Shown here: positions 40,967-58,403 of the stretch, piece by piece
Layout: each line of letters starts with the position of its first letter
How positions within the stretch are numbered: the first letter of the stretch is position 1
Origin: Verrucomicrobiota bacterium
Lineage (GTDB): Bacteria > Verrucomicrobiota > Verrucomicrobiia > Limisphaerales > SXTU01
Direction: 5' to 3'
Assembly (NCBI GenBank): GCA_016235545.1
Contig: JACRKB010000191.1
Span: 1,078-65,077, forward strand
DNA length: 64,000 bases
The notes under the pieces: model-generated
Told to the model about the DNA's origin: nothing
Databases searched by the model: none
The model's input: only the letters and a program-made list of their open reading frames with translations
Position numbers and translations under genes: made by a program

Positions 40967-42001
40967 CTAAACCGTGGTGTAAAGGGATTTCTGCCACGCG
41001 ACGGTGCGCCGCACCCCTTCCTCCAACGGCACGCAGGGAGCCGCTCCGAACTCGCCTTCAAACCGCCCCATGTCCAGCCGCACATCATCCGGTGCCCCGG
41101 CCAAAGCCTGGCCAGCCGCCTCCATCGGGAAGCTCACCGGGACGTTTGTCACCCGCCCGATCAACTCCGCCAGCCCCCGGATCGTGGTGCGCGAATCGCC
41201 GCCGACGTTATAGACCACCTCGCGCCCATCCAAGAGGATGCGCCACATCATCCGCACCGCGTCGGCCACATAGCCGTAGGTCCGCCACGCGGTGCCATGG
41301 TCCATCATGCGAATCGCCCGCTCCGTCAGTGCGCGGCGGATGAAGGTGTTCAACACCCGCTGGTCGTCAGCCCGCGTGCCGGGCCCATACGCCAGCGCCA
41401 GCCGCGCCGCGCGTGCCGCGACTCCGCCCCTGCTCGCCGCGTGGCAGATGGCCTCGCCGCAGCGCTTCGCCTCGATGTAGCAGGCGCGCGCGTGGTCGGT
41501 GTTGGTGGTGCCGATCTGATCTTCGCGAAAAGGTGGGTCGGGCAGGCCGCTGTAAAGCTCGCTCGTGCTGACGAACAGAAACCGCCCAGCCGGTGTGAGC
41601 CGGTCCAGCAGTTCGCAGGTCGCCGCCGTGTTCAGCCGCAGCGTGGCCAGCGGGTTTTCCATGAACTTGCCCGGCTGCCCGTAACCGCCCGCGTGGATGA
41701 TCAGCCCCGCCGCCGGCAGCGTCCGGCAGAACGCCGCGTCGTGGAGCTCACCCGTAAGCAACGTGAAGCGCGGGTGAGTGAACATCTGCCGCAGATGCGC
41801 CGGCACTTCCCGGCGCGCCACCGCGAAGACCCGCTGTGGCGCGTGCGGCCCGTCCGCCAATTCGCGCAGCGTGGCAAGGAAGTAAGTCCCGACGATGCCC
41901 GTTGCGCCCGTGAGCAAGACAGTTTGTCCGGCGATTTTCTCGACCGGCAGCGAGGCCACCACCTCCCGTGCGTCGCGCTGGATTAGGTCAGGCTCCGTCA
42001 T
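40967..42001 (-). CDS. NAD-dependent epimerase/dehydratase family protein
   Basis: 344 aa. VLLTGATGIVGTYF and YIEAKRCGE (YxxxK). ATGA overlap with the transketolase C-subunit stop. Confidence 0.8.
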   Translation of the reverse strand: MTEPDLIQRDAREVVASLPVEKIAGQTVLLTGATGIVGTYFLATLRELADGPHAPQRVFAVARREVPAHLRQMFTHPRFTLLTGELHDAAFCRTLPAAGLIIHAGGYGQPGKFMENPLATLRLNTAATCELLDRLTPAGRFLFVSTSELYSGLPDPPFREDQIGTTNTDHARACYIEAKRCGEAICHAASRGGVAARAARLALAYGPGTRADDQRVLNTFIRRALTERAIRMMDHGTAWRTYGYVADAVRMMWRILLDGREVVYNVGGDSRTTIRGLAELIGRVTNVPVSFPMEAAGQALAGAPDDVRLDMGRFEGEFGAAPCVPLEEGVRRTVAWQKSLYTTV

Positions 42002-42876
42002 TGCAACACCGTGCTGATGCGCGCGCGCAGGCCGGCAGCGTCAAGTCCGCACGCCTGCTCGTGGTCGGCTAGCTTGCCGTAGTTGGTGAGGAACTGGCGC
42101 GGCACACCGCAGGAGATGAGGCGGGTCGATTGCGCCGAGAGCGCCGCGCTCACCTCGCCCGCGAGCGTGCCGGTGTAGAAAGGCTCAACCACGATGACAG
42201 TGCCACTCGTGTGCTTCGCCAGCGTTTCGCGGTCGAAAGGCGCAAGCGTCGTGTAGTGCAGCACGGTCACGTCGAGGTCAGCCGTCGCCGCTAGCACGGG
42301 CTCCAGCGACTGCGCCGCGACCACCACAGTCGCCCGCGTGCCGGTGCGCACCACCCGCGCGCGACCAAAGCTCACCGCCCCATCCTGCGTGTGCGCGCGT
42401 TCCGAGAGCCGGAAATACGTCGGCCCGCCGGAGTAGCTCTCGCGGAAGAGGGCGTCGAACTCGCGGGGATTTCCCGGCGCGACAATCCGCATCCCGGGCA
42501 CCTGCTGCATCAACGCCACGTCACCGGGACAATGGTGCGTGCAGCCGAGCGAGGCGTAGTCGAACGACGCGCCCACGCTCACGAAGCAGCCCGGCAGCCG
42601 CTGGTAGCCGAAGTCCACCTTGAGCTGCTCGAAGGCCCGCTCGACCACGAACGGGGCAATGCTGTGGAAGACGGGGATGAACCCCTCGCGCGCCAGCCCA
42701 GCGGCGAAGCTCACCGTCGCCTGTTCCAAAATGCCGATGTTCACCACGCGGCCGGGGAACTTGGCGAACGCGTTGCGGAAGCCGAACACGCCGATGTCGC
42801 CGAGCAGCAGCACCAGCCGCGGATCCTGGGCGAGCAGGTCCTCCACCGTCGCGACGAATTGCTGGCGGATGTTCAT
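41998..42876 (-). CDS. Transketolase, C-terminal (pyrimidine-binding) subunit
   Basis: 292 aa. LLGDIGVFGF, NIGILEQATVSFAAGLAREGFIPVFHSIAPF. ATGA overlap with the N-terminal subunit gene. Confidence 0.85.
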   Translation of the reverse strand: MNIRQQFVATVEDLLAQDPRLVLLLGDIGVFGFRNAFAKFPGRVVNIGILEQATVSFAAGLAREGFIPVFHSIAPFVVERAFEQLKVDFGYQRLPGCFVSVGASFDYASLGCTHHCPGDVALMQQVPGMRIVAPGNPREFDALFRESYSGGPTYFRLSERAHTQDGAVSFGRARVVRTGTRATVVVAAQSLEPVLAATADLDVTVLHYTTLAPFDRETLAKHTSGTVIVVEPFYTGTLAGEVSAALSAQSTRLISCGVPRQFLTNYGKLADHEQACGLDAAGLRARISTVLQ

Positions 42877-43652
42877 GTGAGCTGCGCGAGGATGCCGTCG
42901 AGTTCATCGGGCGTCGGAGCCTTGTGATGCCACGCCGGATTGCCCTCCATCGGCGGGCAGCCTTTGCCCTTGATGGTGGTGGCCACGATCATCCGAGGCC
43001 GCCCATCGGACGGCTGGGTCACCGCTTGGAAAATTTCCGCGTGGTCATGGCCGTCCACCGCCGCCGTGTGCCAGCCGAACGCGGCAAACTTTGCGGCGAG
43101 ATCGCCCGTGAGCAGCGCGCGGTCGCCGGAATGGTTGTAGTCGAGCAGGCAGCACAGGTTGTCCAACCGGTGATGCGCGCCCAACAGCGCCGCCTCCCAG
43201 ATCGCGCCTTCATTGGCCTCACCGTCGCCCGCCACGCAGAACACCCGCGCGGTGGATTGCTTGAGTTTCAGCCCGTAGGCGATGCCCGCCGCCATCGGCA
43301 AGCCGTGTCCGAGCGAGCCGGTGGACGCCTCGACGCCGGGAACCTTGTTGCTATCCGGGTGCCCGCCAAGCCGGCTGGTGAAGCCCGCGAAGGTCTGCAA
43401 CTCCTCGAATGGGAAGAAACCGTGGTGTGCCAGCACCGCGTAGAGTCCGAGGCTCGCGTGGCCCTTGCTGAGGATGAACCGGTCGCGTCCCTCCCATTTC
43501 GGCTGGTCGGCCTTGAAGCGCAGCACGCGCCCGTAAAGCACCCACAGCAGGTCAAGAATGGAGAAGGCGCTGGCGATGTGGCCCTCCCGCGCGGTGGTGG
43601 CCGCGAGGATGATGCGACGGCGCAGTTCCCGGAGTGTTTCGGCTTCGTTCAC
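42873..43652 (-). CDS. Transketolase, N-terminal (ThDP-binding) subunit
   Basis: 259 aa, GTG start. EGHIASAFSILDLLWVLY, ILSKGHASLGLYAVL, GSLGHGLPMAAG and GDGEANEG (ThDP motif). Confidence 0.85.
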   Translation of the reverse strand: MNEAETLRELRRRIILAATTAREGHIASAFSILDLLWVLYGRVLRFKADQPKWEGRDRFILSKGHASLGLYAVLAHHGFFPFEELQTFAGFTSRLGGHPDSNKVPGVEASTGSLGHGLPMAAGIAYGLKLKQSTARVFCVAGDGEANEGAIWEAALLGAHHRLDNLCCLLDYNHSGDRALLTGDLAAKFAAFGWHTAAVDGHDHAEIFQAVTQPSDGRPRMIVATTIKGKGCPPMEGNPAWHHKAPTPDELDGILAQLT

Positions 43653-43788
43653 GCGTGAATCAAGGCGGCTTTAGATACGGGCGCGGCTTGGCGCAGCGCA
43701 ACAAAAAATCCCGCCGCGCCCGGCCTTGCCTCACGCGTGGCGTTGCTCGCATCATTACCCGCCGGGCGCACCCGGCGAACTGACCAGC

Positions 43789-45186
43789 ATGAAGCTGCTG
43801 TTCCTGATCGACAACCTGCAGTTCTTTCGCGACGTGTTCCGCAGCACGGTGCTGCCGCGCCTGCTTGCCGACGAGGGCACGGAGGTGGTTGTCGCCAGCA
43901 CCTATTCGGCGGACGCCATCGCGCAGGAGTTCGCCCACCCGCGCCTGCGCGTCCATCCGCTCCAGCCACCGCCCGCGAACTGGCTGACGGACCTTGCCTA
44001 CTCGGTGGCCAAAGACATTTACGTGCTGGAGCGGCCTGATGGCAGCTTCGCGCAAAAGCGCTTCGTGGAGGCGGAGCAGCACGAGCGGCGATCGCTGGCG
44101 GCACGCATGGCGCTTGGGCGGGCGCTGCGCGCGATGGGCTTCACCTCACGAGGAGTGATGCGGTGGGTTGAAGGGATTGGCGTGGAGCCGGATTTCGACG
44201 CGCTGCTTCAGCGCGAGCGTCCGGACTTGGTTGTCTTTTCCACCATGCTGCCCGGGGTCAGCCCGTGGCTGAAGGCCGCGCGTCGGTCGCGCATTCCCAC
44301 CGTCCTCAGTGTCGCGAGCTGGGACAACCCAACCTCGAAAGGTCCGTTGCTGGTGCCGCCCGACCACGCGCTGGCATGGAGCGAGGAGATGAAACGCGAG
44401 CTGATGCACTTCCACTGGCTGCCAGCGGAGCGCATCGCGACCGTGGGCGTGCTTTACTTCGAGAGCTATTTTGCCGCGAAGGATTTGCCGGACCGCGCGG
44501 CGTTTTGCGCGGGGCTGGGCATTGATCCCGCGTGTCGCATCCTGCACTACGCGACGGGCGACAGCGCGTTGATCCGCTGCAACCAGGAGTTCATTCGCGT
44601 GCTCCAGCGGCTGATTGCATCGGGCCAACTCGGTGAGCCGTGCCATCTGCTCGTGCGCGTCAGCCCCAAGGACTTGTTCCATCTCTACAAAGAGTTCGAA
44701 GGCACGCCCCATGTGACCGTGCAGTATCCCGCCGGTTCGGGCACGCTCTACGGCGCGCACAAGTGGCTCCCCGCCGCCGGCGAGGAGCGTGAGCGCGCCG
44801 CCACGGTGAAGCACAGCGATGTCATCCTGAGCGTCTCCTCCTCGATGGTGCTCGACGCGTGCTGCTTCGACGTGCCGGTCATCAACCTCGCCTATGACGC
44901 CGGCCTGAAAGTCCCGCCGTGGGAGTCGGTGGACCGCTTCTACGCCTACTCCCACTGTCAGCCCGTGTTGAAGTCCGGTGCCACCTGGATCGTGAAGCGC
45001 GAAGCCGAACTGCTGGAGTCGCTCCAGCTCACGCTGCGCGATCGTTCGGCGAAGCAAGGTGAACGGCGCGAACTGCTCGAACGGCTGGTCGGGCTCACCG
45101 ACGGGCAGACCAATGAGCGATGGGTGGCGGCGATGCGAAACATCGCCCGTCAGGAAAGCATTCCCGTTTCCAAGCCAGCGCGTTAG
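43789..45186 (+). CDS. Hypothetical protein, possibly a GT-B-fold glycosyl/phosphoglycosyl transferase
   Basis: Start at ATG 43789 (MKLLFLIDNLQFF). The layout looks two-Rossmann-like (VVVASTY..., LVVFSTMLPG, SVASWDNPTSKG, SDVILSVSSSMVLDA). No family named with confidence. Confidence 0.55.
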   Translation: MKLLFLIDNLQFFRDVFRSTVLPRLLADEGTEVVVASTYSADAIAQEFAHPRLRVHPLQPPPANWLTDLAYSVAKDIYVLERPDGSFAQKRFVEAEQHERRSLAARMALGRALRAMGFTSRGVMRWVEGIGVEPDFDALLQRERPDLVVFSTMLPGVSPWLKAARRSRIPTVLSVASWDNPTSKGPLLVPPDHALAWSEEMKRELMHFHWLPAERIATVGVLYFESYFAAKDLPDRAAFCAGLGIDPACRILHYATGDSALIRCNQEFIRVLQRLIASGQLGEPCHLLVRVSPKDLFHLYKEFEGTPHVTVQYPAGSGTLYGAHKWLPAAGEERERAATVKHSDVILSVSSSMVLDACCFDVPVINLAYDAGLKVPPWESVDRFYAYSHCQPVLKSGATWIVKREAELLESLQLTLRDRSAKQGERRELLERLVGLTDGQTNERWVAAMRNIARQESIPVSKPAR

Positions 45187-45197
45187 CTTCCCGAACA

Positions 45198-46067
45198 ATG
45201 AGCCAAGCAAATCCGCCCGACCTCGCGCAACTGCGGCCATCGGTGACGATCCTGGTCACGTCGTGTGACTGGTTTTACGATGTCTGGGTTCCCTTCTTCT
45301 ACTTCTTCAAGCGGCACTGGTCGGACAACCCGTTTGCCGTCCGCTTGATCACCAACCGCTTCCGCTTGGATGAGGGTGACGTTCGTGAGCTGCCCGTGGG
45401 CGAAGACAAGGGCTGGGGTGGCAATCTGATTGCCGCGTTGCGCGAAATCAGCTCCGACTACGTTCTGTATGTGCAGGAGGACCAGTTCTTCACCCGTTCG
45501 GTGGACACGACGGAGTTTTGCAACGACCTGCGCCACTGCCTGACGCACGGCGTGGATTATCTGGCTTACCGCGCTTCGCCGGAGGACGAACCGGGGTTCA
45601 AGCCGGTCAACGACCGCTTTGGCATCATCGCGGCAAACTCCCCACACCGGGTGAAGGCCGATCCAGCGCTCTGGAAACGCACGACGCTGCTGCAAATGCT
45701 CCGGGCGGACGACTCTCCGTGGCATTTCCTCAACACGGGCAGCGAGCGCTGCCGGGATTTGCTGTTCATGCGCTACTGTCGGCAGACCTCGTCCACGGTT
45801 GATTACTTGCCGGGCTCGGCGATCCGGCGTGACCTGTGGCGCAAGGAAGGGCTGGCAATGATGCGGGCGCATGGCTTGACGCCGGAGCCGGGTTATCGCC
45901 GCACGCACATCAAGATGAAGAGCCTGCTGACGCAACTGCGCCGCACCCTAACGCGCCGCCGCTTCCGGGCCGACATCCGCCGCCAGCCCGACCGCGTGGT
46001 GCCGGTGAACCGCTCCGTGGCGACGGCGCTGACCGCCACTGGCCGGGCGGTCAGGAAAGTGAATTGA
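45198..46067 (+). CDS. Uncharacterised glycan-locus protein, paralogue of 37469-38299
   Basis: Start at ATG 45198. For the shared motifs see the entry at 37469-38299. The basic C-terminal tail is absent from the paralogue. Confidence 0.6.
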   Translation: MSQANPPDLAQLRPSVTILVTSCDWFYDVWVPFFYFFKRHWSDNPFAVRLITNRFRLDEGDVRELPVGEDKGWGGNLIAALREISSDYVLYVQEDQFFTRSVDTTEFCNDLRHCLTHGVDYLAYRASPEDEPGFKPVNDRFGIIAANSPHRVKADPALWKRTTLLQMLRADDSPWHFLNTGSERCRDLLFMRYCRQTSSTVDYLPGSAIRRDLWRKEGLAMMRAHGLTPEPGYRRTHIKMKSLLTQLRRTLTRRRFRADIRRQPDRVVPVNRSVATALTATGRAVRKVN

Positions 46068-46151: not shown

Positions 46152-46925
46152 ATGAAAGTAGTCATCCTGTGCGGCGGATTGGGCACGCGGTTGCGTGAAG
46201 AGACGGAGTTCCGTCCCAAGCCGATGGTGCCGGTGGGCGGGCGGCCCATTCTCTGGCACATCATGAAGTATTACGCCCACTTTGGGCACAAGGACTTTAT
46301 CCTCTGCCTGGGCTACAAGGGCGAGTTCATCAAGGACTACTTCCGCAACTACCATTGGAACACGAGCGACGTGACGCTCAAGCTGGGCCGCAATCCCCAG
46401 ATCCGCTATCACAACACCCACGCCGAGGAGGACTGGACGGTCACGCTGCTCGACACCGGTGCGGAGACGCAGACCGGCGGACGCCTGCGCCGCGCGCTGG
46501 CGCACGTCGAGGAGGACACCTTCCTATTAACCTACGGCGACGGCCTGACGAACAGCAACATCAACTCCTCAATTGCCTTCCACAAGCGGCATGGGGCCAT
46601 CGGCACGGTCACGGCGGTCAAGCCCGGGGGGCGGTTCGGCGAGTTGGCCATGGACGGCGAAACAATCCAGTCTTTCCGCGAGAAGCCGGAGAAGGAGGCA
46701 GGCTTCATCAGCGGCGGCTTCTTTGTCCTGAACAAAACCATCGGGAAGTATCTACCTGGCGATGATTGCGTTTTGGAGAAGCAGCCGCTCACGAGTTTAG
46801 CCACGGAGGGCCAGCTCAAGGCGTGGCGGCATGATGGCTTCTGGCAGTGCATGGACACGCTGCGTGAAACGGAGCACCTGAACAAACTCTGGGCTACCGG
46901 CAGTGCACCGTGGAAAATCTGGTGA
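46152..46925 (+). CDS. rfbF: Glucose-1-phosphate cytidylyltransferase
   Basis: Start at ATG 46152. MKVVILCGGLGTRLREETEFRPKPMVPVGGRPILWHIMKYYAHFG is the classic RfbF/DdhA N-terminus. Confidence 0.9.
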   Translation: MKVVILCGGLGTRLREETEFRPKPMVPVGGRPILWHIMKYYAHFGHKDFILCLGYKGEFIKDYFRNYHWNTSDVTLKLGRNPQIRYHNTHAEEDWTVTLLDTGAETQTGGRLRRALAHVEEDTFLLTYGDGLTNSNINSSIAFHKRHGAIGTVTAVKPGGRFGELAMDGETIQSFREKPEKEAGFISGGFFVLNKTIGKYLPGDDCVLEKQPLTSLATEGQLKAWRHDGFWQCMDTLRETEHLNKLWATGSAPWKIW

Positions 46926-48040
46926 CCATGTTCGGCGGCTACTACCAAGGCAAACGTGTCCTCGTCACCGGGCACACCGGTTTCAAAGGAGCGTGGCTCT
47001 CGCTCTGGCTGAGGCAGCTCGGTGCCCAAGTCTGCGGCCTCGCGCTGCCACCGGAGAACGCGCCCAATCTCCACGAACTCATTCAGCCGGGGACGTTCGC
47101 GGCGGCATCCATCGTGGACATCCGCGACGCCGACGCGGTGGCGGAAGTCGTGCGGGCCGCAAAACCTGACTTCGTCTTCCACCTCGCCGCGCAGGCGCTC
47201 GTGCGGCGCTCGTATGCCGCGCCGGTCGAGACGATGCAGACGAACGTGCTGGGCACCGTCCACATGCTCGAAGCCGTCCGCCAACTCCGCCGCCCCGTGC
47301 CCATGCTCGTTGTCACCACGGACAAGTGCTACGAAAACCACGGCTGGGACCACGGCTATCGCGAGACCGACGCGCTCGGCGGCCACGATGTTTATGCCGC
47401 CAGCAAAGCCGCGTGCGAAATCGTCGTGGGCGCGTGGCAGCGCTCCTTCTTCCAGCCGGACGCGAAGCTCGGCAACGTCGCCACCGCCCGCGCCGGTAAT
47501 GTGATTGGCGGCGGTGACTTCGCCACGGACCGCATCGTGCCCGACTGCGTCCGCGCGCTTGCCAGCAAAGCTCCCATCCGCGTCCGCAACCCGCACGCCA
47601 CGCGCCCGTGGCAGCATGTGCTGGACTGCCTGAGCGGTTATCTCTGGCTCGGCGCGTGCCTCGCGACCGCGCCGAAAAACTCGCCGCTGGCCGGCGCGTT
47701 CAACTTCGGCCCCGCCTTACAGGCCAACCGGACCGTGGGCGTGCTCGTCGAAGAGCTGCTTCGCCACTGGCCCGGCCAATGGCTTGAAGCCTCCGACCCC
47801 AAGGCCCCGCATGAGGCCGGTCGCCTGCACCTCGCGATAGACAAGTCAGCCGCGCAGCTCGGCTGGCAGCCAACGTGGGACTTTGCCGACACCGTGAAGC
47901 ACACCGCACTCTGGTATCGCCGCTTCGCGGCCTGCGGCGGGCGTGGTTCGCGCGCCTTCACCGTGAAGCAGATTGCGGACTTCAGCCGTGCCGCCAAGAC
48001 GCAGGGACAGGCCTGGGCCGCCGCTGGGAAAGCGACATGA
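46910..48040 (+). CDS. rfbG: CDP-glucose 4,6-dehydratase
   Basis: GKRVLVTGHTGFKGAWLSLWL, YAASKAA (YxxxK) and RPWQHVL. The start is either 46910 or ATG 46928. Confidence 0.9.
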   Translation: MENLVTMFGGYYQGKRVLVTGHTGFKGAWLSLWLRQLGAQVCGLALPPENAPNLHELIQPGTFAAASIVDIRDADAVAEVVRAAKPDFVFHLAAQALVRRSYAAPVETMQTNVLGTVHMLEAVRQLRRPVPMLVVTTDKCYENHGWDHGYRETDALGGHDVYAASKAACEIVVGAWQRSFFQPDAKLGNVATARAGNVIGGGDFATDRIVPDCVRALASKAPIRVRNPHATRPWQHVLDCLSGYLWLGACLATAPKNSPLAGAFNFGPALQANRTVGVLVEELLRHWPGQWLEASDPKAPHEAGRLHLAIDKSAAQLGWQPTWDFADTVKHTALWYRRFAACGGRGSRAFTVKQIADFSRAAKTQGQAWAAAGKAT

Positions 48041-49269
48041 GCGAGGCCACTTTCACATGCCGCTCCTGCGGGAGCGTGGGGGGACAACTCGTGCTCGACC
48101 TCGGCGTCCAGCCACTGGCCAACAATCTTCTCCGCCCGGAAGACCTCGGGAAACCGGAACCGCGCTTTCCACTGCGCATCTTCTTTTGCCCGCAGTGCTG
48201 GCTGCTGCAAATCACCGACCTCGTCCCGCCGGTCGAGCTGTTCACCGAATACCTCTACTTCTCCTCGTTTTCGGACACGATGCTGCGCCACGCGCGTGAG
48301 GCGGCGCAGCGCTACGTCCGCGACTTCAAGCTAGGTGCGGACAGTCTGGTGGTCGAGATCGCCAGCAACGACGGCTACCTGCTGAAGAATTTCCGCGATG
48401 CGCGCGTGCCTTGCCTGGGCATCGAGCCGGCGGCGAACATCGCCAAGGTCGCGCGTGAGCAGGGAATTGAGACACGCGTCGAGTTCTTCGGCGCGGAGCT
48501 GGCCCGCAAACTGGCGGGCGAAGGGCGGCGGGCAGACTTGATTCTGGGCAACAACGTCTTCGCCCACGCGCCGGACACGAATGACTTTGTGGCTGGCCTG
48601 AAGCTGCTACTCCAACCGCGCGGCCGAGTGGTGTTGGAATTTCCGCACGGCCTGGAGCTGCTGGAGAGGACCGAGTTCGACACGATTTACCACGAGCATG
48701 TCTTTTACTTCACGCTAACCGCGTTGCGCCCGCTGTTCATCCGGCACGGGCTGGAGGTCATCCGCGTCGAGCGGTTGCCGATCCACGGCGGCTCGCTGCG
48801 CGTCTTCGCAGGCCACGCGGGCGTGCATCCGGTGGACGACACGGTGGCGGCGTTTCTCGCGGAGGAGCACGCGCACGGCGTGGATTCGCCGGCGCGCTAT
48901 GCGGCGTTTGCCGGACAGGTGCAGGCGATTCGGGGCGCGTTGGTTCAACTCGTGACGGAGTTACTCGGGCAGGGGAAAAGTGTCGCCGCCTACGGCGCGT
49001 CGGCGAAGGGCAGCACGTTGCTGAACTATTGCGGCCTCGACCACCGGCAACTCGCCTTCGTGGCCGACCGGAGCACTTACAAGCAGGGCCGACTCACGCC
49101 CGGCACGCACATCCCGATTGTTGGGGCGGAGGAACTGGCCCGCCGCCAACCCGATTTCACGCTCCTCCTCACTTGGAATTTCACCGACGAAATCCTGCGC
49201 CAGCAGCAGGCGTATCGGGATGCGGGCGGGAAGTTCATCGTCCCGATTCCGGAGGTGCGCGTCGCATGA
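48037..49269 (+). CDS. NDP-hexose C-methyltransferase (TylCIII-like; Zn-ribbon, SAM-MT and C-MT domains)
   Basis: ATGA overlap with rfbG. CRSCGS...CPQC zinc-ribbon, SAM motif VVEIASNDGYLL, and the C-terminal domain motif VAAYGASAKGSTLLNY. Confidence 0.75.
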   Translation: MSEATFTCRSCGSVGGQLVLDLGVQPLANNLLRPEDLGKPEPRFPLRIFFCPQCWLLQITDLVPPVELFTEYLYFSSFSDTMLRHAREAAQRYVRDFKLGADSLVVEIASNDGYLLKNFRDARVPCLGIEPAANIAKVAREQGIETRVEFFGAELARKLAGEGRRADLILGNNVFAHAPDTNDFVAGLKLLLQPRGRVVLEFPHGLELLERTEFDTIYHEHVFYFTLTALRPLFIRHGLEVIRVERLPIHGGSLRVFAGHAGVHPVDDTVAAFLAEEHAHGVDSPARYAAFAGQVQAIRGALVQLVTELLGQGKSVAAYGASAKGSTLLNYCGLDHRQLAFVADRSTYKQGRLTPGTHIPIVGAEELARRQPDFTLLLTWNFTDEILRQQQAYRDAGGKFIVPIPEVRVA

Positions 49270-49805
49270 AGTTCACTCCCACCAAGCTGGCTGGCGTATG
49301 GCTCGTGGATCAGGAGCGGCGCGGAGACGAGCGCGGCTGGTTCGCCCGGACATGGTGCGCGGAGGAGTTTATCAAGCACGGGCTGAATCCGAAGCTTTCG
49401 CAGTGCAGCGCCTCCTTCAACCAACGACGCGGCACGCTGCGTGGGATGCACTATCAGGTCGCCCCCCTCGAAGAAGCTAAGCTGGTGCGCTGCGTGCGTG
49501 GCGCGGTGTTCGATGTGGCGCTGGACTTGCGCCCGGCGTCACCGACGTTCCGCCAATGGGCCAGTGCGGACCTGACCCCCGACAACGGCCGGGCGCTCTA
49601 CGTGCCGGAAGGCTGCGCCCACGGCTTCCAGACGCTCGCGGACGACACAGAAATCCTCTACCAAATCAGCGCTCCCTGGCAGTCCGCCAGCGCGCGGGGG
49701 GTGCGGTGGAACGACCCTGCCTTCGGCATCGCCTGGCCGCTCGCGGGGGAAGCCCTGCTCAACGACCGCGACCGCGACCTGCCCGACTTTCCCGGCCAAC
49801 CATGA
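49266..49805 (+). CDS. NDP-4-keto-6-deoxyhexose 3,5-epimerase (RfbC/RmlC cupin family)
   Basis: ATGA overlap with the upstream gene. DERGWFARTW, RGMHYQ and GCAHGFQTL are RmlC-type motifs. Confidence 0.85.
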   Translation: MKFTPTKLAGVWLVDQERRGDERGWFARTWCAEEFIKHGLNPKLSQCSASFNQRRGTLRGMHYQVAPLEEAKLVRCVRGAVFDVALDLRPASPTFRQWASADLTPDNGRALYVPEGCAHGFQTLADDTEILYQISAPWQSASARGVRWNDPAFGIAWPLAGEALLNDRDRDLPDFPGQP

Positions 49806-50692
49806 GAATCCTGCTCACCGGGGCCACGGGCTTCATCGGGGCGGCCTTCCTGCGGGAGGCGACGCTGGCGGGCCACGAAGTCGCCGCGCTCGTTCGGCCG
49901 GAGCGCGTGGCCGCACTGACGGGGCAAGCTTCCGTCCGTCCGCTGACCGGCACGCTGGCGGACGCGCCCTGGGGCGACATCACCGCCTTCGCCCCCGACG
50001 TGTGCGTTCACACCGCGTGGGTCACGACGCCGGGAAGTTACCTGGAGTCGCCGGAGAACGAGCTGTTCCTCGCCTGGAGCCAGGCCTTTTTGCGCCGGGC
50101 GATGGACGCCGGGGTGGCGCACCTCGTGACGCTGGGGACGTGCATCGAATACGCGATGACCGGCACGCCCTTGTCTGAGACGGCCACCCCGCTCGCTCCG
50201 GTCTCGCCCTACGCGGGGGCGAAGGACGCGCTCCGCCGCTGGCAGGATACCAAAGCCGCCGCGCGCGGCGTGCGCGCGGCCTGGGCGCGGGTGTTTTATC
50301 CCTACGGCCCCGGCGAGCATCCGACCCGGCTGGCCACATCGATCGTGCAGCGGTTGCGCCGGGGCGAACCGGTCACGCTCAAGACGGCGGCGAGCGTGAA
50401 GGACTACCTCTTCATCAGCGACCTGGCCACCGCGCTCCTGACCGTCGTGGCCGGCCGCTTTCACGGCCCCGTCAATCTCGGCACCGGCGAGGGTGTGACC
50501 GTGGGCGCGCTGGCCGGCGCGATTGCCGGCCAACTGGGCCGACCAGATTTGCTGCGCGTCGCGGAGCCGGGCACGCCGGATCCGTATGCATACGTGGTGG
50601 CGGACGCGGCGCGGCTGCGGGCGCTGGGCTGGCAGCCCCGCGTTTCCCTCGCGCAAGGCGTGGCGCAACTCCTCGGACACCTCCCCGCATGA
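49802..50692 (+). CDS. NAD(P)-dependent epimerase/reductase (candidate 4-ketoreductase)
   Basis: ATGA overlap. MRILLTGATGFIGAAF and YAGAKDA (YxxxK). Confidence 0.75.
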   Translation: MRILLTGATGFIGAAFLREATLAGHEVAALVRPERVAALTGQASVRPLTGTLADAPWGDITAFAPDVCVHTAWVTTPGSYLESPENELFLAWSQAFLRRAMDAGVAHLVTLGTCIEYAMTGTPLSETATPLAPVSPYAGAKDALRRWQDTKAAARGVRAAWARVFYPYGPGEHPTRLATSIVQRLRRGEPVTLKTAASVKDYLFISDLATALLTVVAGRFHGPVNLGTGEGVTVGALAGAIAGQLGRPDLLRVAEPGTPDPYAYVVADAARLRALGWQPRVSLAQGVAQLLGHLPA

Positions 50693-51840
50693 AACCTCGC
50701 ACCACGTGTCCCGGCTGCGGGGGCATCCAGCTTTCGCCCACATGGCGCATTCCCCGGCAGCCGGTGGTGTTGAACTACCGCTTCGCCACCGCCGCCGCCG
50801 CGCTGCGCGTGCCGCGCCGTGACTTGCGGCTGGCGCAATGCGGCGGCTGCGGCCTCATCTTCAACGCGGTCTTCGACTCGGCCGTGATTCCTTACGACGA
50901 ATGCTACGAAAACCGCCAGGGCTGCTCGGCGGCGTTCCAAGCCCACCTTCAGGCGCAGGTCCGCCGGCTGGTGCGCCGACTGCCGGCGCGCGACGGGCGC
51001 GTGCTGGAGGTGGGCTGCGGAAAGGGCGATTTCCTCCGGCTGCTGTGCCGGGAGGCGGGGGCGCGCGGCGTTGGCTACGACACGTCGTATGAGGGGCCGC
51101 CGGTGGCCGAGGATGGGCGCGTGCGGTTCGAGCAGCATTACGTGTCGGCGCGCGAGGTGGAGTCGCCGTTCGACATGGTGGTCTGCCGGCACGTGGTCGA
51201 GCACATCGGGGAAATCGGGAGCTTTCTCCGGGAGCTGCGCGCCATCGCGGCGGCGGCGGGTGATCCGGTGGTGGTCATCGAGACGCCGGCCTTCGAGTGG
51301 ATCGCGGCCCATGACTGCTTCTGGGATGTGTTTTACGAGCACTGCAATTACTTCCCCCGCCCGAGCCTGGCGCGGCTCTGCCGGCTGGCCGGCTTCAAGG
51401 TCGAGCGCCAGACGGCGGTGTTCGGCGGGCAATACCAGTGGCTGGAACTACGGGTGCGGCAGCGGTGCTGGCCGGCCTGCAAGGCCGCCACCGTGGTGCG
51501 CCTGAGTCCCTTCGCGAAGCGGGCTGAACGGATGGTGCAGGCGCTGGAAAAGCGGCTGCGGCAGCACGGGGCCGCGCGCGGCTGGGCCATCTGGGGGGCG
51601 GGGGCCAAGGGCGTGGCGCTGGTGAACCGCCTGCACCGCCTGCCGCCCGCGCTGGTCGTGGATAGCAACGCCGCCAAGCAGGGGGGCTTTATCCCTGGTT
51701 CCCGCGTGCCCATCGTCGCCCCGGACGACCCGTGCCTGCGCGACCTCTCGCTGGTGCTCATCGCGAATCCGCGTTATGCGCCTGAGATTACTTGCGCGTT
51801 GCGGCAGGCGGGTATCGCTCCTACGATCCTCACCACCTGA
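50689..51840 (+). CDS. Second TylCIII-like C-methyltransferase-type protein
   Basis: ATGA overlap. CPGCGG...CGGCG zinc-ribbon, SAM motif VLEVGCGKGDFL, and the C-terminal motif WAIWGAGAKGVALVNRL. Confidence 0.7.
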   Translation: MKPRTTCPGCGGIQLSPTWRIPRQPVVLNYRFATAAAALRVPRRDLRLAQCGGCGLIFNAVFDSAVIPYDECYENRQGCSAAFQAHLQAQVRRLVRRLPARDGRVLEVGCGKGDFLRLLCREAGARGVGYDTSYEGPPVAEDGRVRFEQHYVSAREVESPFDMVVCRHVVEHIGEIGSFLRELRAIAAAAGDPVVVIETPAFEWIAAHDCFWDVFYEHCNYFPRPSLARLCRLAGFKVERQTAVFGGQYQWLELRVRQRCWPACKAATVVRLSPFAKRAERMVQALEKRLRQHGAARGWAIWGAGAKGVALVNRLHRLPPALVVDSNAAKQGGFIPGSRVPIVAPDDPCLRDLSLVLIANPRYAPEITCALRQAGIAPTILTT

Positions 51841-51844
51841 GTTC

Positions 51845-52612
51845 ATGCGCATCACCATTGACACCGAGGCGGCCACGCTCGCCCACGACGACGGGGCAGG
51901 GCTGCAAACCTTGCCGCTGTATTCCGACGCGGCCTTCGAAATCCTCTCCCGCCAGTGGGTGAAGGTCGGCTGGGACCGGAAATACTCCTATACCTTCACC
52001 TGGCTGGGCCGGCCGTTGATTCAACTGCCGGAAGATGTGCTGCGGATTCAGGAAGTCATCTGGGCGATGCAGCCGGACGTGATCATCGAGACGGGCGTGG
52101 CGCATGGCGGCTCACTGATTTTTTACGCCAGTCTGTGCAAGGCCATCGGCAAGGGGCGCGTCATCGGCGTGGACATTGAAATCCGCCCGCCCAACCGGCA
52201 GGCCATCGAGGCCCATCCGCTGGCTGGCGCGATCACGTTGATCGAGGGCGACTCCACCGCGCCCGCCGTGGTGCAACGTGTGCGCCGGCTGGTGCAGCCG
52301 GGCGAAACCGTGCTGGTCATCCTCGATTCCTGCCACACACGCGCCCATGTGCTGGCCGAGCTGGAGGCGTATCACCCGCTGGTCACGCCCGGCTCCTACC
52401 TCGTGGCGACGGACGGCATCATGCACGACCTGCACGACACGCCACTGGGCCGGCCGGAGTGGACCGGGGACAACCCGACGGTGGCGGCGCGGGAGTTTGC
52501 CGCGCGGCATCCCGAGTTTCAGCACGGGCCGCCGCCTTGGCCGTTCAACGAGAGCACGCTCCACCAAAACGTCACCCACTGGCCGGAGGCGTTCCTGCGC
52601 CGGGTTCGTTAA
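51845..52612 (+). CDS. Cephalosporin-hydroxylase (CmcI) family methyltransferase
   Basis: Start at ATG 51845. WLGRPLIQLPEDVLRIQEVIWAMQPDVIIETGVAHGGSLIFYA is typical of the CmcI/rhamnosyl-O-methyltransferase family. Confidence 0.75.
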   Translation: MRITIDTEAATLAHDDGAGLQTLPLYSDAAFEILSRQWVKVGWDRKYSYTFTWLGRPLIQLPEDVLRIQEVIWAMQPDVIIETGVAHGGSLIFYASLCKAIGKGRVIGVDIEIRPPNRQAIEAHPLAGAITLIEGDSTAPAVVQRVRRLVQPGETVLVILDSCHTRAHVLAELEAYHPLVTPGSYLVATDGIMHDLHDTPLGRPEWTGDNPTVAAREFAARHPEFQHGPPPWPFNESTLHQNVTHWPEAFLRRVR

Positions 52613-52632
52613 TCCGCGCCCGCCCACCACCC

Positions 52633-53823
52633 ATGAGCCAGCCGAAGTTCACCATCCTGCTGCCGACCAAGAACCGGAGCTTCCTCGTCGGCGGAGCCAT
52701 TCGCAGTGTGCTGGCGCAAAGCTTCCCTGACTGGGAACTGATCGTGGCCGACAACGATGACACGTCCGCCACGCGGGAAGTGGTCGAGCCGTTCAAGGAT
52801 CCCCGGATCAAGTATCTTAAGACCGGCGGCCTGAGCATGCCGGACAACTGGGAGGCGGCCGTGCGCGGGGCCCGGGGCGATTTCGTCCTGTTTCTGGAAG
52901 ACAAGCAGGCGCTCAAGCGGCATGCCCTGGCCCGACTGGCCCAGGTTGCGGATGGCCCGCTCCAGCCCCGGTGCATTTCCTGGCCCTACGATGTGCTGGA
53001 TGAAGAGCATCGTGTGCCCGTGGTGAAACGGATGATCGGGTCGGGCCGCGTCACGAAGGTGCCCGCCCGCCAGTTGATTGATCTGTTCGTGCGCTGCCAG
53101 CGCTCCGCGTATCTCTACCTGTTTCCGCGCGGCATCAACTCGTGCGTGCATCGGGAGGTGCTGGGCCGCATCCGCAGCGGGCCGGTGGGCCGTGTCTGTC
53201 CGCCCGTGACCCCGGACTTCAACCTCGCGTTCCAAACCCTCGCGTTCGTCGAGCAAATCGTCCATGTGGAGGAATCGCTCGTGGTCTTCGGGGGCATGAG
53301 CCACAGCAATTCCCGCAGCTTCAAGCTCAAGCGTCCGCTGGCGGCGCAGTTTCTCAAAGAGCTGGGCGGAGACGAATCCATCTATTTCTGCCACCTGCCG
53401 GTGAAGGTGCCGGTCCTCAGCCTGCTGCTGTTCAACGACTACGCCTTCATGCGGCAGCGCTATCCGGAACGGTTCTCTGACTACCCGCTGGATCCGGTGG
53501 TGCTGCTGGAAGATTCCCACACTGAGATCGTTGCGCGCCGCAAGCTGGGCGTGGACATGAGCCATGAACAAACCGCTTGGGACACCGCCCTGGCGGAGCA
53601 GCCCACCGCGTTGGCCGCCGAGGTCCGGCGGCGGCTTGCCACCAAGCCGGCGGCTGACTTGCTTCAACTCGGAGCAAACTACTTCGTGAAGGCGATCCGC
53701 AGCACCAAGTTCAAAGACTTGGACAGCTACCTCGCCTACGACGCCGTGGCCCGCGTTTACTACGATCCGGTCTGGCAGGCGGCCCACCGCCTCAAACGTA
53801 TGCTGTCCCGCCGGCGCCGGTGA
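52633..53823 (+). CDS. Family 2 glycosyltransferase
   Basis: Start at ATG 52633. FTILLPTKNRSFLVGGAIRSVLAQSFPDWELIVADNDD and FLEDK (DxD-like). Confidence 0.8.
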   Translation: MSQPKFTILLPTKNRSFLVGGAIRSVLAQSFPDWELIVADNDDTSATREVVEPFKDPRIKYLKTGGLSMPDNWEAAVRGARGDFVLFLEDKQALKRHALARLAQVADGPLQPRCISWPYDVLDEEHRVPVVKRMIGSGRVTKVPARQLIDLFVRCQRSAYLYLFPRGINSCVHREVLGRIRSGPVGRVCPPVTPDFNLAFQTLAFVEQIVHVEESLVVFGGMSHSNSRSFKLKRPLAAQFLKELGGDESIYFCHLPVKVPVLSLLLFNDYAFMRQRYPERFSDYPLDPVVLLEDSHTEIVARRKLGVDMSHEQTAWDTALAEQPTALAAEVRRRLATKPAADLLQLGANYFVKAIRSTKFKDLDSYLAYDAVARVYYDPVWQAAHRLKRMLSRRRR

Positions 53824-55468: not shown

Positions 55469-56698
55469 TCAGTTGGCGGGCGTGGCGGCCTTCGTGTAGT
55501 GCAGGCGCTTCTGGATGTAGGGAGTCAATCGCGCGACCTGCCGGGCAATCGCCCTGGCCACGCCAGGCTGGCCGTAGATAGTGGAGGCCGCGTAACGCCC
55601 GCGCGCCAGTTGCGCCCGCACTGCCGCCTCGATCTCCGCCGCGTGCGGTTCCACCCGCCGGACGGACGGCGACCACTCGCGTCCATCCTGTCGCGAGCCG
55701 ACCAACACCACTGGAGTGCCGAGGAAGGAAGTTTCCCGCACGAAGGAGGACGAGTTGCCGATGCAGCACGCCGCGTTCTTCAGCAGCGGCAGATAGACTT
55801 CCGGCTCCAGGTTCTTGTAGGCGTGCAGCGGAAAGTCGTGGTGAAACTCGCGGAAGCGCCGGATGGCCTTCGAGATGCGGTCGGCCCCAGCGTCAATGTT
55901 CGGCCAGAGCAACACCGTCTGCGTGCCGAGCTTCTCCACGACGGTAAGCACCTCCTTCATCTGGTCCTCCTGGTGGCCGTAGTCGGTCGTCACTGGATGG
56001 AAGAGCGCCAGCAGAAATGGCTTCGCGAAATCAATTGGCATCCCCACGCCGTAGCGGGCGAGCACGTCGGCGGGCAGCTGCTTTGTCGCCTCGGCCACCA
56101 CGTCGCAGCACGGGCAGCCCAGCGGGAATACCGTGGCGGGATCCTCGCCCATCGCCACGATGTATTCGCCCGCGCGCCTCGTCGCCGGGAAGTGGTAATG
56201 GGCCAGTTTCGTGATGGCGTGGCGGGTGGACTCGTCAATCGAGCCGGACACCTCGCCGCCTTGCAGATGGATGAGGCAAAAGTTCTGGTAAACTGCCGCC
56301 ACCGTCGCCGCCAGCGCCTCGTAGCGGTCGCCGATCACCAGCACGAAGTCCGGCTTGAGCCGCTGAAACTCCGACGCGAACTCGATCACGCCCAAGCCGA
56401 TGCCCTTGGTCATGGTGATCGGCACCGAGCCTTCGACTTCGAGGTAGATTTCCGATGCGATGGGGAAACCGTCCTTCTCGACCACATCGCGCGCGCGACC
56501 GAAGCGCTCCAGCAGCATGGTGCCCGCGCAGACCACCTGCAATTCCACCTCCCCTTGCCGTTGCAGCTCCTGCATCACCGGACGGAGGCGCGCATAATTG
56601 GCGCGGTCCACCAGCACAACGGCGATTTTTTTCTTGGTCACGCGGGCAGGATGATAATCTGGCGGCGGCGGGGCGGGCAATGGGGAAACCCGAATCAC
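55469..56698 (-). CDS. neuC: UDP-N-acetylglucosamine 2-epimerase, hydrolysing (NeuC/LegG type)
   Basis: GTG start in GTGA overlap with the neuA stop. DRYEALAATVAA and HLQGGEVSGSIDESTRHAITKLAHYHF match the NeuC signature. Confidence 0.85.
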   Translation of the reverse strand: MIRVSPLPAPPPPDYHPARVTKKKIAVVLVDRANYARLRPVMQELQRQGEVELQVVCAGTMLLERFGRARDVVEKDGFPIASEIYLEVEGSVPITMTKGIGLGVIEFASEFQRLKPDFVLVIGDRYEALAATVAAVYQNFCLIHLQGGEVSGSIDESTRHAITKLAHYHFPATRRAGEYIVAMGEDPATVFPLGCPCCDVVAEATKQLPADVLARYGVGMPIDFAKPFLLALFHPVTTDYGHQEDQMKEVLTVVEKLGTQTVLLWPNIDAGADRISKAIRRFREFHHDFPLHAYKNLEPEVYLPLLKNAACCIGNSSSFVRETSFLGTPVVLVGSRQDGREWSPSVRRVEPHAAEIEAAVRAQLARGRYAASTIYGQPGVARAIARQVARLTPYIQKRLHYTKAATPAN

Positions 56699-57408
56699 CA
56701 GCCCTTCACATCCGCGAGGAACCGGGCGAACTCCAGGTCCAGTGACTCATCAATGTTCACCAGCTCGCGCTCCACCAGCAGCCCGCGCGTGTTCTCGGTG
56801 AAGATCACCTGCCGCTCCAGCAGGCAGGCGCGCGCGAGGGCGTAGCACGCGCCGTTGCGGAAGTAGAGCGGGCGCAGCGACTGCCGCTGCTTCACGGCCG
56901 CGCCCGCCGGGTCGTAGAAATCCAGCCGTCCTTCGTCCAGCACCAGCACCTTGTGCGGGTGAAACTTCGTGTCCACCCGCGAGACCGTCACGACCGAGTC
57001 CGCGCCGGACTCCGTCAGCAACTTCGCCGCGCCAGTCACGTCTTCCGCCCGGCGGAACGGGCAGGTCGGCTCCACGATGAGCACGATGTCGTAGCGCACG
57101 GAATCGTGCTGCTCGGCGGCACGCAGCGCATGAACCAGCGTCTCCACGGCGCCCGCCGTGTCCGTGCTCAACTCCGGCGGGCGCAGGAAGGGCGCGGCCA
57201 GCCCGTGCGCCTCCGCCTCCGCCGCGTAGGCGGGTGCGTCGGTCGAGATGATGGCACGGTCAATCCACGCGCACTCCGGCGAGCGCAGCAGCCGCGCGGC
57301 CCGGGCGATGAGCGAATAGCCCCCAAGCTGCTGAAGGTTCTTGTCTTGGATGCCCTTGCTCCCGCTGCGGGCGGGCACGACGGCAAGCACTCGTTGGTTG
57401 GCAATCAT
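56695..57408 (-). CDS. neuA: Acylneuraminate (nonulosonate) cytidylyltransferase
   Basis: Start at ATG 57406-57408, in ATGA overlap with the upstream stop. VLAVVPARSGSKGIQDKNL is the CTP_transf_3 signature. Confidence 0.85.
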   Translation of the reverse strand: MIANQRVLAVVPARSGSKGIQDKNLQQLGGYSLIARAARLLRSPECAWIDRAIISTDAPAYAAEAEAHGLAAPFLRPPELSTDTAGAVETLVHALRAAEQHDSVRYDIVLIVEPTCPFRRAEDVTGAAKLLTESGADSVVTVSRVDTKFHPHKVLVLDEGRLDFYDPAGAAVKQRQSLRPLYFRNGACYALARACLLERQVIFTENTRGLLVERELVNIDESLDLEFARFLADVKGW

Positions 57409-58403
57409 GGTGTGAGCAGCACGGCGCGACCACTGGTGGAACTTTCGCGGCACGCATCCACGACTTGCAACGCGCGAATCCCGTCGGCCACCGAGCACGT
57501 GAGCGGCGCCGCCGAAGTGCCGCGCACCCGCGCCAGAAGCTCCTTCGCCGCCCCGACGAACATCTCATTCCGCTCGCACGTAAACGTCTCGCGCTGCCAG
57601 TTCGCCGCGCCCTCGCGGCAGAGCTTGATGGCGTTCTCCTCATACACGTAGGCGAGCGTGCCGCCCTCGCCCATCGCCGTGATGCTGCGCTCGTGCGGGC
57701 GGCCCAGCAGGTCCAGGTGCAGGTTCACGCGCAGGCCGGACGCGTAGCTGACGAGGATGTCCACGTTGTCGTCCGCGCTGATTTCGAGGGAGGAAATCTT
57801 TTCGACCTGCGCATAGACCTTCGCCGGCCAGCCCGCGATCCACAGCATCAGGTCAATGAAATGGCTCTCGTCCAGCAGCGCGCCGCCGCCTTGCTCGCGG
57901 TTCGCCATGAAGAAATCCTGGTAGCGCTCCCACGGATGCCAGTCCGCCAGGTGCGCGCTCATCACGAAGCGCAGTGTGTGCAACGCGCCGATCTCGCCCG
58001 CCTGCAACCGCTCGCGAAACCGGCCCAGCGGCGGCCACCAGCGATACGTGTAGCCAAGCAGCACGCGGCCCGCGACCGGCTCCAGCCGCCGCGCCGCGGC
58101 GCCGGTGACGGACAAGGGCTTCTCACAAAGAATCCAGCGCTCGTGCCGCGACGCGATGGCCAGCACTTGGTCCACGTGAAAGACCGGCGGCGACGCGATG
58201 ACGAAGCCGTCGTAGCCGTGCGCGCCCAGCGCGACGTCCACTTTCGTGTGCGTGGAAAACAGCGGGCCTTCCGTCGCCGCCTCGCCCAGCCGGTCTTCGC
58301 GTGGGTCGAAGGCGCTGACGCGGCAGCCGAGCGCGCGGAGGTTGCGCGAGTGGCGCTTGCCGGCAGAACCGGCTCCGAGCACGAGAATATGTGGTGAGTC
58401 CAT
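57405..58403 (-). CDS. Gfo/Idh/MocA-family oxidoreductase
   Basis: Start at ATG 58401-58403. ILVLGAGSAGKRHSRNL Rossmann motif and the EKP motif in ILCEKPLS. Confidence 0.8.
   Translation of the reverse strand: MDSPHILVLGAGSAGKRHSRNLRALGCRVSAFDPREDRLGEAATEGPLFSTHTKVDVALGAHGYDGFVIASPPVFHVDQVLAIASRHERWILCEKPLSVTGAAARRLEPVAGRVLLGYTYRWWPPLGRFRERLQAGEIGALHTLRFVMSAHLADWHPWERYQDFFMANREQGGGALLDESHFIDLMLWIAGWPAKVYAQVEKISSLEISADDNVDILVSYASGLRVNLHLDLLGRPHERSITAMGEGGTLAYVYEENAIKLCREGAANWQRETFTCERNEMFVGAAKELLARVRGTSAAPLTCSVADGIRALQVVDACRESSTSGRAVLLTP

Follow-up and report, generated by a model that had tools for sequence, protein, structure and literature searches.

Which sugar is assembled by a bacterial operon that opens with the two entry genes of the cytidine diphosphate (CDP) hexose pathway and goes on with three methyltransferase genes? 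This question is raised by a stretch of 64,000 nt from a Verrucomicrobiota bacterium (assembly GCA_016235545.1, contig JACRKB010000191.1; genome of about 65% GC), denoted as the window in the following, in which positions 46152-53823 hold eight co-directional genes on the + strand, here called g1 to g8. A first-pass annotation of this DNA had proposed that they direct the synthesis of a CDP-linked, C-methyl-branched and O-methylated 6-deoxy-L-hexose similar to vinelose. The analysis presented here favors, with a probability of roughly 60%, a self-contained cassette for a CDP-activated, C3-methyl-branched 6-deoxyhexose, which would receive one or two further methyl groups and be placed onto a surface glycan by a family 2 glycosyltransferase (GT2).

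Gene content and predicted enzymes

The eight genes, their order and their family assignments agree with the first description; the coordinates were re-read, and the Pfam and NCBIfam matches concur. The same applies to the postulated translational coupling, as ATGA stop/start overlaps are found at all four positions named for them, 48037 (g2/g3), 49266 (g3/g4), 49802 (g4/g5), and 50689 (g5/g6). The remaining junctions show gaps of 2 nt (g1-g2), 4 nt (g6-g7), and 20 nt (g7-g8). The GC content at third codon positions (GC3) is 0.82-0.87 in all eight genes, which is the coding signature of the host genome, and they are regarded as real genes because each has close homologs elsewhere. A simple scan for sigma-70 promoters inside the operon returned none, and a scan of the same region for intrinsic terminators gave terminator-like sites no more common than in shuffled sequence. 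These results are consistent with a single transcription unit, without proving it.

The entry pair of the CDP-hexose pathway, RfbF/DdhA and RfbG/DdhB, is predicted at equivalog level. The first gene, g1 (46152-46925, 257 aa), encodes the putative glucose-1-phosphate cytidylyltransferase RfbF, matching TIGR02623 over its full length with 365.5 bits (cutoff 300.25) as well as PF00483; its orthologs, 48-94% identical, head the cassette in related loci. It is followed by g2 (46928-48040), the putative CDP-glucose 4,6-dehydratase RfbG, with a full-length match to TIGR02622 (452.9 bits, cutoff 278.45) and further matches to PF16363 and PF01370.

The methyl branch at C3 is assigned to g3 (48037-49269, 410 aa), predicted to be an NDP-hexose 3-C-methyltransferase of the TylC3/TcaB9 type. 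It combines PF08421 (78 bits), PF13489 (50.6 bits), and PF08484 (198 bits), i.e. the zinc ribbon, the class I S-adenosylmethionine (SAM) domain, and the C-terminal nucleotide-sugar domain that define this type, and no NCBIfam model matches it. Its full-length matches in the PDB are MtmC (E 7e-95), KijD1 (6e-88), and TcaB9 (7e-80). Identity amounts to 42% with MtmC and 37% with TcaB9. The first-pass annotation had suggested placing both C-methyltransferase-like proteins in a phylogeny with TylCIII, and in a neighbor-joining tree g3 falls among the characterized 3-C-methyltransferases, clustering with MtmC and TcaB9. The catalytic residues of TcaB9, understood here as the positions mutated in its mechanistic study (the names of the mutants are confirmed by PDB titles), are conserved in five of five cases: Y72, H177, Y218, E220, and H221 of g3 align with Y76, H181, Y222, E224, and H225. 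Domain architecture and catalytic residues together identify g3, at the level of sequence, as a bona fide member of the TylC3/TcaB9 clade. Its specificity for CDP-linked substrates is a prediction supported by its placement between rfbG and the epimerase gene in a CDP operon.

This epimerase gene, g4 (49266-49805, 179 aa), encodes a predicted RmlC-type 3,5-epimerase. It reaches 163.6 bits against TIGR01221 (cutoff 155.75) and 207 bits against PF00908, aligns along its length with RmlC structures (down to E 2.6e-40) and with NovW (E 4.9e-32), and keeps the motifs RG(M/L)HYQ, KLV, and LY of the conserved cupin core in the alignments with RmlC structures. Once methylated, C3 is quaternary, and the enzyme is therefore expected to work on such a substrate as a 5-epimerase that inverts C5 only. 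The next gene, g5 (49802-50692, 296 aa), codes for an extended short-chain dehydrogenase/reductase (SDR) with 100.7 bits against PF01370 and the motifs GATGFIG and YAGAK (YxxxK). Its PDB relatives are remote only (MoeE5, GalE-like proteins, and GDP-fucose synthase, E about 1e-17 to 1e-14). It is presumed to be the CDP-4-keto-sugar 4-reductase since it is the only candidate reductase in the pathway. In g5, Arg and not Asp follows the second beta-strand, which as a rule of thumb favors NADPH. A role of g5 as an epimerase was considered and dropped, as the pathway would otherwise have no 4-keto reduction and the Arg residue suggests NADPH.

The second C-methyltransferase-like gene, g6 (50689-51840, 383 aa), is a predicted NDP-sugar methyltransferase that departs strongly from the characterized enzymes. 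PF13489 is matched with 91.5 bits and PF08484 weakly with 35.4 bits, the PF08421 model gives no score, and KijD1, TcaB9, and MtmC are the only sequence matches in the PDB (E about 1e-15). An AlphaFold model computed from 22 members of the family, with a predicted local distance difference test value (pLDDT) of 89.3, superimposes on MtmC, KijD1, and TcaB9 over the full length (about 400 columns) with template modeling (TM) scores of 0.80-0.81. The next-best fold matches are generic single-domain methyltransferases with TM scores of at most 0.35. According to this model, g6 shares the complete three-domain fold of TcaB9 and its domain order. Invariant in its family are Cys 7, 10, 51, and 54 at the positions of the zinc site, the SAM motif LEVGCGKGDF, and H172, E217, and H218, the equivalents of TcaB9 H181, E224, and H225; the counterpart of TcaB9 Y76 is kept in all family sequences compared, and F215 stands in for Y222. 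With this substitution the catalytic set is incomplete, and g6 lies outside the characterized 3-C-methyltransferase clade: its identity to g3, MtmC, TcaB9, and other 3-C-methyltransferases is 21-24%, and in the neighbor-joining tree it belongs to a deep and separate clade, which includes paralogs from Sinorhizobium meliloti pSymB and Leisingera plasmids. No member of the g6 family is known to have been studied. The C-terminal domain of TcaB9 is said to anchor the nucleotide of the substrate in structures from the Holden laboratory. Because g6 is modeled with this fold, it should act on a nucleotide-sugar rather than on a finished glycan.

The third methyltransferase gene, g7 (51845-52612, 255 aa), matches PF04989 with 251 bits over profile positions 2-206 of 206 and the PDB entries of CmcI with E 8e-11. 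Against NF045824, the equivalog model of the mycobacterial rhamnosyl 2-O-methyltransferase, it scores 88.3 bits, below the cutoff of 400. By these profiles g7 is a clear member of the CmcI/RMNT family and not an equivalog of the mycobacterial enzyme; it is presumed to be a sugar O-methyltransferase. It would methylate at the level of the nucleotide-sugar, because its position is kept inside the sugar cassette and not beside a transferase. The last gene, g8 (52633-53823, 396 aa), encodes a family 2 glycosyltransferase with an N-terminal GT-A domain (PF00535, 50.5 bits, residues 7-107) and an uncharacterized C-terminal part of about 270 aa, presumably the transferase for the CDP-sugar. GT2 genes 24-38% identical to g8 come after g7 in about 15 related loci.

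A cassette shared by many phyla

C-methyl-branched sugars are regarded as rare compounds made by antibiotic producers and a few pathogens, and the first-pass annotation had likewise implied that such an operon is rare. At the gene level this is refuted. More than 8000 homologs of g3 are found below an E value of 1e-30 (identity is 69% or higher for each of the top 120, which stem mostly from Verrucomicrobiota metagenome bins), and the seven-gene cassette g1-g7 occurs across many phyla. Species-representative genomes were searched with two g6-specific peptide motifs and the g6-family alignment, whereby at least 599 stretches matched; a g6 relative is encoded in at least 509 stretches of the one-genome-per-species collection. 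The comparison of loci drew on the best 80 of these at least 509 stretches, and 52 loci had enough flanking DNA to be evaluated.

All seven genes are present in 30 of the 52 evaluable loci, 21 of which show the exact order of the window on one strand, and six loci hold only g5-g6-g7. The core of the arrangement is the pair g5-g6, with g5 immediately upstream of g6 in nearly every locus, usually followed directly by g7 (41-93% identical). Carriers were found among the Verrucomicrobiota, Acidobacteriota, Chloroflexota, Planctomycetota, cyanobacteria (Okeania, Trichodesmium), Myxococcota, Beta- and Gammaproteobacteria, Bacillota (Paenibacillus, Cohnella), Gemmatimonadota, and Methylomirabilota. 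Cultured representatives are Cohnella endophytica M2MS4P-1, Paenibacillus sp. L3-i20, Roseateles violae PFR6, and Synechocystis. The nearest relative (locus L005) is a metagenome-assembled genome (MAG) of the Limisphaerales (Verrucomicrobiota), whose cassette proteins are 74-93% identical. The flanking genes vary between the loci. Since the same genes recur across phyla while their flanks differ, g1-g7 are considered one functional unit. Judged from the compared loci, the operon is a conserved, horizontally mobile cassette and not singular to the present genome.

The triad g5-g6-g7 also stands apart from the rest: six verrucomicrobial loci (L018, L019, L025, L029, L033, and L036) as well as L002 (11937-15655) carry it without g1-g4 within 10 kb. 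In several Verrucomicrobia the triad is often followed by a GT2 gene and a gene for a YfhO-like membrane protein of about 910 aa, a combination reminiscent of three-component (lipid-carrier) glycosylation systems.

A further variant occurs in Alphaproteobacteria. On pSymB of S. meliloti, ddhA, ddhB, and an 'NDP-hexose 3-C-methyltransferase' have been listed (PMC4053727). This locus (L003; S. meliloti 1021, 688000-712000) was annotated by hand with Pfam. It shares with L004, from a plasmid of Leisingera caerulea, an rfbF-rfbG pair, a g3-like C-methyltransferase, and two g6-like paralogs. No RmlC, SDR reductase, or CmcI gene lies near either of them, leaving the 4-keto reduction unexplained there. 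In Synechocystis, rfbF-rfbG-rfbC is followed by a 'putative C-3 methyltransferase'.

Genes for CDP-linked sugars of this kind are common among environmental bacteria, e.g. Verrucomicrobiota, Acidobacteriota, Planctomycetota, cyanobacteria, and Bacillota. As a class, the cassette appears to be biochemically uncharacterized, though annotators have long labeled it in generic terms. In the searched literature, no biochemical studies of the Azotobacter vinelandii, Synechocystis, or S. meliloti versions were found, and on CDP-linked C-methyltransferases only the in silico work on virenose and papers on actinomycetes surfaced. Characterization of a single cassette would put a name to a surface sugar of hundreds of species, provide a function for the unstudied TcaB9-like clade, and probably also identify the genes for CDP-vinelose. 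The present operon is one more copy, and its individual significance is modest.

The predicted sugar, its relatives and competing explanations

In the proposed pathway, RfbF would form CDP-D-glucose, which RfbG would convert to CDP-4-keto-6-deoxy-D-glucose. By the chemistry of TylC3 and TcaB9, g3 would deprotonate C3 beside the 4-keto group and transfer a methyl group from SAM to the resulting enolate. Inversion of C5 by the RmlC-like g4 would lead into the L series, and the SDR g5 would reduce the 4-keto group at C4. At the nucleotide-sugar level, g6 and the CmcI-family enzyme g7 would add further methyl groups, including at least one O-methyl group, before g8 transfers the completed sugar. 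The order of the steps, the CDP specificity of g3 to g7, the sites at which g6 and g7 methylate, the stereochemistry at C3 and C4, and the acceptor glycan are predictions of this scheme. CDP-6-deoxy-3-C-methyl-hexose is a reasonable core product. From the possibly O-methylated CDP-6-deoxy-3-C-methyl-L-hexose predicted at the outset, the C3-branched CDP core is upheld by the five conserved residues of g3 and the equivalog matches, and the stereochemistry is not readable from sequence. Most likely, judging by analogy, the product belongs to the class of vinelose and nogalose, i.e. the 6-deoxy-3-C-methyl-O-methyl-L-hexoses. Vinelose is 6-deoxy-3-C-methyl-2-O-methyl-L-talose, and CDP-vinelose is known from A. 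vinelandii through chemical work of the 1960s; nogalose is a 3-C-methyl, multiply O-methylated 6-deoxy-L-hexose.

Several known systems resemble parts of this pathway. Closest in logic are the dTDP pathways of actinomycetes with TylC3 and MtmC (mycarose), TcaB9 (tetronitrose), and KijD1 (kijanose), with whose C-methyltransferases g3 shares the three domains, the four zinc-binding Cys residues, all five catalytic residues, and 37-42% identity. The 3-C-methyl pathways of actinomycetes likewise proceed through a 4,6-dehydratase, C3 methylation beside the 4-keto group, a 5-epimerase, and a 4-ketoreductase. The window differs in that the sugar is activated with CDP (RfbF/RfbG) instead of dTDP, genes for 2-deoxygenation and amination are lacking, the cluster belongs to a surface glycan rather than an antibiotic, and the divergent TcaB9-like g6 is added. 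The noviose (NovT/NovW/NovU/NovS) and nogalose (SnogG2 and O-methyltransferases) routes also combine an RmlC-like epimerase, a C-methyltransferase of the TylC3 family, a 4-ketoreductase, and later O-methylation; in contrast to the window, they are dTDP-linked and specific to actinomycetes, and their O-methyl groups are introduced once the sugar has been transferred, by methyltransferases of unrelated families. For virenose, the 6-deoxy-3-C-methyl-gulose of the Coxiella burnetii O-antigen, the TylCIII homolog CBU_0691 is proposed to act on an NDP-4-keto-6-deoxyhexose (PMC3539893). This sugar of the lipopolysaccharide (LPS) has the C3 methyl branch in common with the predicted product, whereas its pathway is only predicted, is proposed to derive from GDP-mannose, and includes one methyltransferase and no O-methylation. 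The 3,5-epimerization and C4-reduction of CDP-4-keto-6-deoxyglucose have been demonstrated for Campylobacter jejuni HS:41 (PMC12369002). There, an RfbF-type enzyme, a 4,6-dehydratase, a 3,5-epimerase, and an NADPH-dependent C4-reductase act on CDP substrates toward CDP-6-deoxy-L-altrose and CDP-D-fucose, as envisaged for the window; unlike the window, that system contains no methyltransferases and possesses a pyranose-furanose mutase (PMC12369002).

The A. vinelandii locus was compared on the basis of the annotation tables in two papers on strain DJ, i.e. of annotation strings and not of sequences. An rfbF-rfbG-rfbC arrangement in this species goes back to Hausman et al. (1998), as cited in PMC3769361. 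In DJ, the genes run from fliC (Avin_27700) through a tetratricopeptide repeat (TPR) glycosyltransferase (Avin_27710), a 'dTDP-6-deoxy-L-hexose 3-O-methyltransferase' (Avin_27720), a 'cephalosporin hydroxylase' (Avin_27730, a name shared with the CmcI structures), a hypothetical protein (Avin_27740), and a conserved hypothetical protein assigned to COG0500 SAM methyltransferases (Avin_27750) to rfbC (Avin_27760), rfbG (Avin_27770), rfbF (Avin_27780), and a UDP-glucose 6-dehydrogenase (Avin_27790). For the homologous operon that the first-pass annotation had suggested looking for, a candidate thus exists at annotation level, with rfbFGC, a COG0500 methyltransferase, the CmcI-family name, and a further sugar methyltransferase. 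The producer of CDP-vinelose hence has a CDP-6-deoxyhexose cluster with several methyltransferases, which supports the analogy with vinelose as far as annotations allow, and the product expected from the window is also a CDP-linked, C3-methylated and O-methylated 6-deoxy-L-hexose. The two loci differ in that rfbC directly follows rfbG in A. vinelandii, no SDR is recognizable there from the annotation, and fliC and the TPR glycosyltransferase are the neighbors, compared with the LPS-like or other polysaccharide-like context of the window. A. vinelandii is not among the best 80 of the at least 509 stretches with a g6 relative. The searched literature gave no match for 'vinelose' and no genetic assignment for CDP-vinelose.

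The three methyltransferase-like genes and the TPR glycosyltransferase beside rfbFGC abut the flagellin gene fliC in A. vinelandii. This adjacency suggests that the cluster is a flagellin glycosylation island, and vinelose may decorate flagellin in this species.

The three methyltransferases also bear on whether the product is vinelose itself. Vinelose has two methyl groups, and with one methyltransferase too many the product is probably not identical to it; from the vinelose-like product first proposed, the annotation match in A. vinelandii speaks for the likeness and the third methyltransferase against it. If only one of g6 and g7 methylated O2 and the other acted on a different substrate, had a regulatory or structural role, or worked after transfer, vinelose could still result. 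The gene set supplies every step that vinelose needs, Pfam and NCBIfam describe a rhamnosyl 2-O-methyltransferase as a member of the CmcI/RMNT family, and A. vinelandii DJ carries rfbFGC, the 'cephalosporin hydroxylase', and other methyltransferase genes by annotation. It is nevertheless rather unlikely. In most cassettes g6 and g7 are both conserved and adjoin each other, and g6 has the nucleotide-sugar-binding architecture of TcaB9 with an intact catalytic dyad, so that both probably act in the pathway; in addition, talo cannot be told from manno by inference and the likeness to A. vinelandii exists at annotation level only. The L-talo configuration and the 2-O position named at the outset were overstated, as neither is derivable from sequence. 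A different use of the surplus enzyme would be methylation at C5, as catalyzed by NovU in noviose biosynthesis, giving a 3,5-di-C-methyl-6-deoxyhexose that g7 would O-methylate. The sole characterized enzymes with the fold of g6 are C-methyltransferases, and its family shows no variation in the proposed base dyad E217-H218 or at the positions equivalent to H181 and Y76. Moreover, g6 is the only TcaB9-like enzyme in L051, L072, and L080, the loci L059, L048, and L061 hold g3 and g6 without an epimerase, which fits a non-stereogenic C5, and the PDB matches of g4 include NovW, the noviose-pathway epimerase. This assignment is unlikely all the same: most cassettes with g3 and g6 retain the epimerase, which would be pointless if C3 and C5 were both quaternary, the equivalent of TcaB9 Y222 is replaced (F215), NovU resembles the TylC3 clade and not the divergent clade of g6, and we know of no 3,5-di-C-methyl sugar that has been described. 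In a broader and equally speculative form, g6 would represent a clade of nucleotide-sugar methyltransferases that have the TcaB9 fold, extend across phyla, and methylate a position other than C3, possibly C5, leading to a novel 3,5-di-C-methyl surface sugar of which vinelose would be a chemical relative. If a regiochemistry other than C3 were true, the seven-gene cassette would stand for a new, widely distributed bacterial surface sugar.

The remaining alternative is that the cassette supplies the precursor of a 3,6-dideoxy or amino sugar, with E1/E3 enzymes or an aminotransferase contributed by genes beyond the window. In established enzymology, the routes to the 3,6-dideoxyhexoses branch off at CDP-4-keto-6-deoxyglucose, and only 64 kb of the genome are visible. 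Pfam scans, which covered nearly all other sizeable GC3-supported open reading frames (ORFs) of the window except one of 2727 aa (25535-33718), detected no pyridoxamine phosphate (PMP)-dependent E1 of the DegT/PMP type (PF01041), no iron-sulfur flavoprotein reductase of the E3 type, and no aminotransferase in the scanned frames. The absence of E1/E3 and aminotransferase genes noted initially is thereby borne out for the scanned ORFs of the 64-kb window, and the hallmark of a 3,6-dideoxyhexose operon, E1 and E3 beside rfbF/rfbG, is not seen within it. Given that no such family occurs in the scanned ORFs of the 30-kb glycan region, that the seven genes are compact in distant phyla with no extra conserved partner in the compared loci, and that methylation of C3 by g3 and deoxygenation of this carbon in the same intermediate rule each other out chemically, this alternative is highly improbable. 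The self-contained cassette for a C3-methyl-branched CDP-6-deoxyhexose is preferred. Several points weigh against it as well. For g6, activity as a C-methyltransferase, as an O-methyltransferase, or even as a reductase is conceivable, and g5 has no close characterized relative, its best PDB matches being epimerases and not 4-ketoreductases. The steps of the cassette are not obligatorily linked, because variants lack g3 (L051, L055, and L072; L039 lacks both g3 and g7), g4 (L048, L052, and L061), or g7 (four loci). No assay of a cassette enzyme or of a CDP-specific C-methyltransferase was found in the searched literature, and E1/E3 genes may lie elsewhere in the genome, beyond the visible 64 kb.

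Genomic surroundings of the operon

From about 33.6 kb onward to its end, the window consists of a glycan-biosynthesis region, which contains an MsbA-like ABC exporter, several methyltransferases, and glycosyltransferases of the families GT4, GT9, and GT61. The surroundings of the operon look like an LPS or other polysaccharide context. The neighbors of the operon in this region are common only to the closest genome (L005), and elsewhere the cassette lies among other genes. Upstream of the operon, a GT4-like gene (43726-45186) and an ORF of 315 aa without Pfam match (45120-46067) occupy 43726-46067 on the + strand and end 85 nt before g1. As their conservation is limited to the closest Limisphaerales MAG, both are placed outside the mobile cassette.

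The block at 40027-43652 (- strand), divergent from the GT4 gene and the operon, comprises a transketolase split into an N-terminal half (42873-43652) and a C-terminal half (41998-42876). Two SDR genes come next, one of which resembles GDP-fucose synthase. A possible role of the transketolase block is to extend a keto sugar by a two-carbon unit or to attach such a unit as a branch. The split transketolase and the SDR genes were considered as a conserved part of the pathway and rejected, as only L005 and two Prosthecobacter loci have them together with the cassette.

Nonulosonic acid genes flank the operon on both sides, at 36568-37455 (+ strand) and 55469-57498 (- strand), and encode a NeuB-like synthase, NeuC (TIGR03568, 339 bits), and a PseF-like cytidylyltransferase. 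Because no aminotransferase was detected in the scanned ORFs, this set points to a nonulosonic acid of the Neu5Ac/KDN type rather than the legionaminic or pseudaminic acid type. In the same run as the cytidylyltransferase, the region 57405-60999 (- strand) codes for a thiamine diphosphate (ThDP) enzyme resembling acetolactate synthase (58403-59956), together with a GFO/IDH/MocA oxidoreductase and, at 59953-60999, a D-2-hydroxyacid dehydrogenase. Possible roles of the ThDP enzyme are sugar branching, in the manner of YerE, and modification of the nonulosonic acid. Just upstream of the glycan region, the 2727-aa frame at 25535-33718 (- strand) is a single ORF with a coding-type GC3 of 0.86.

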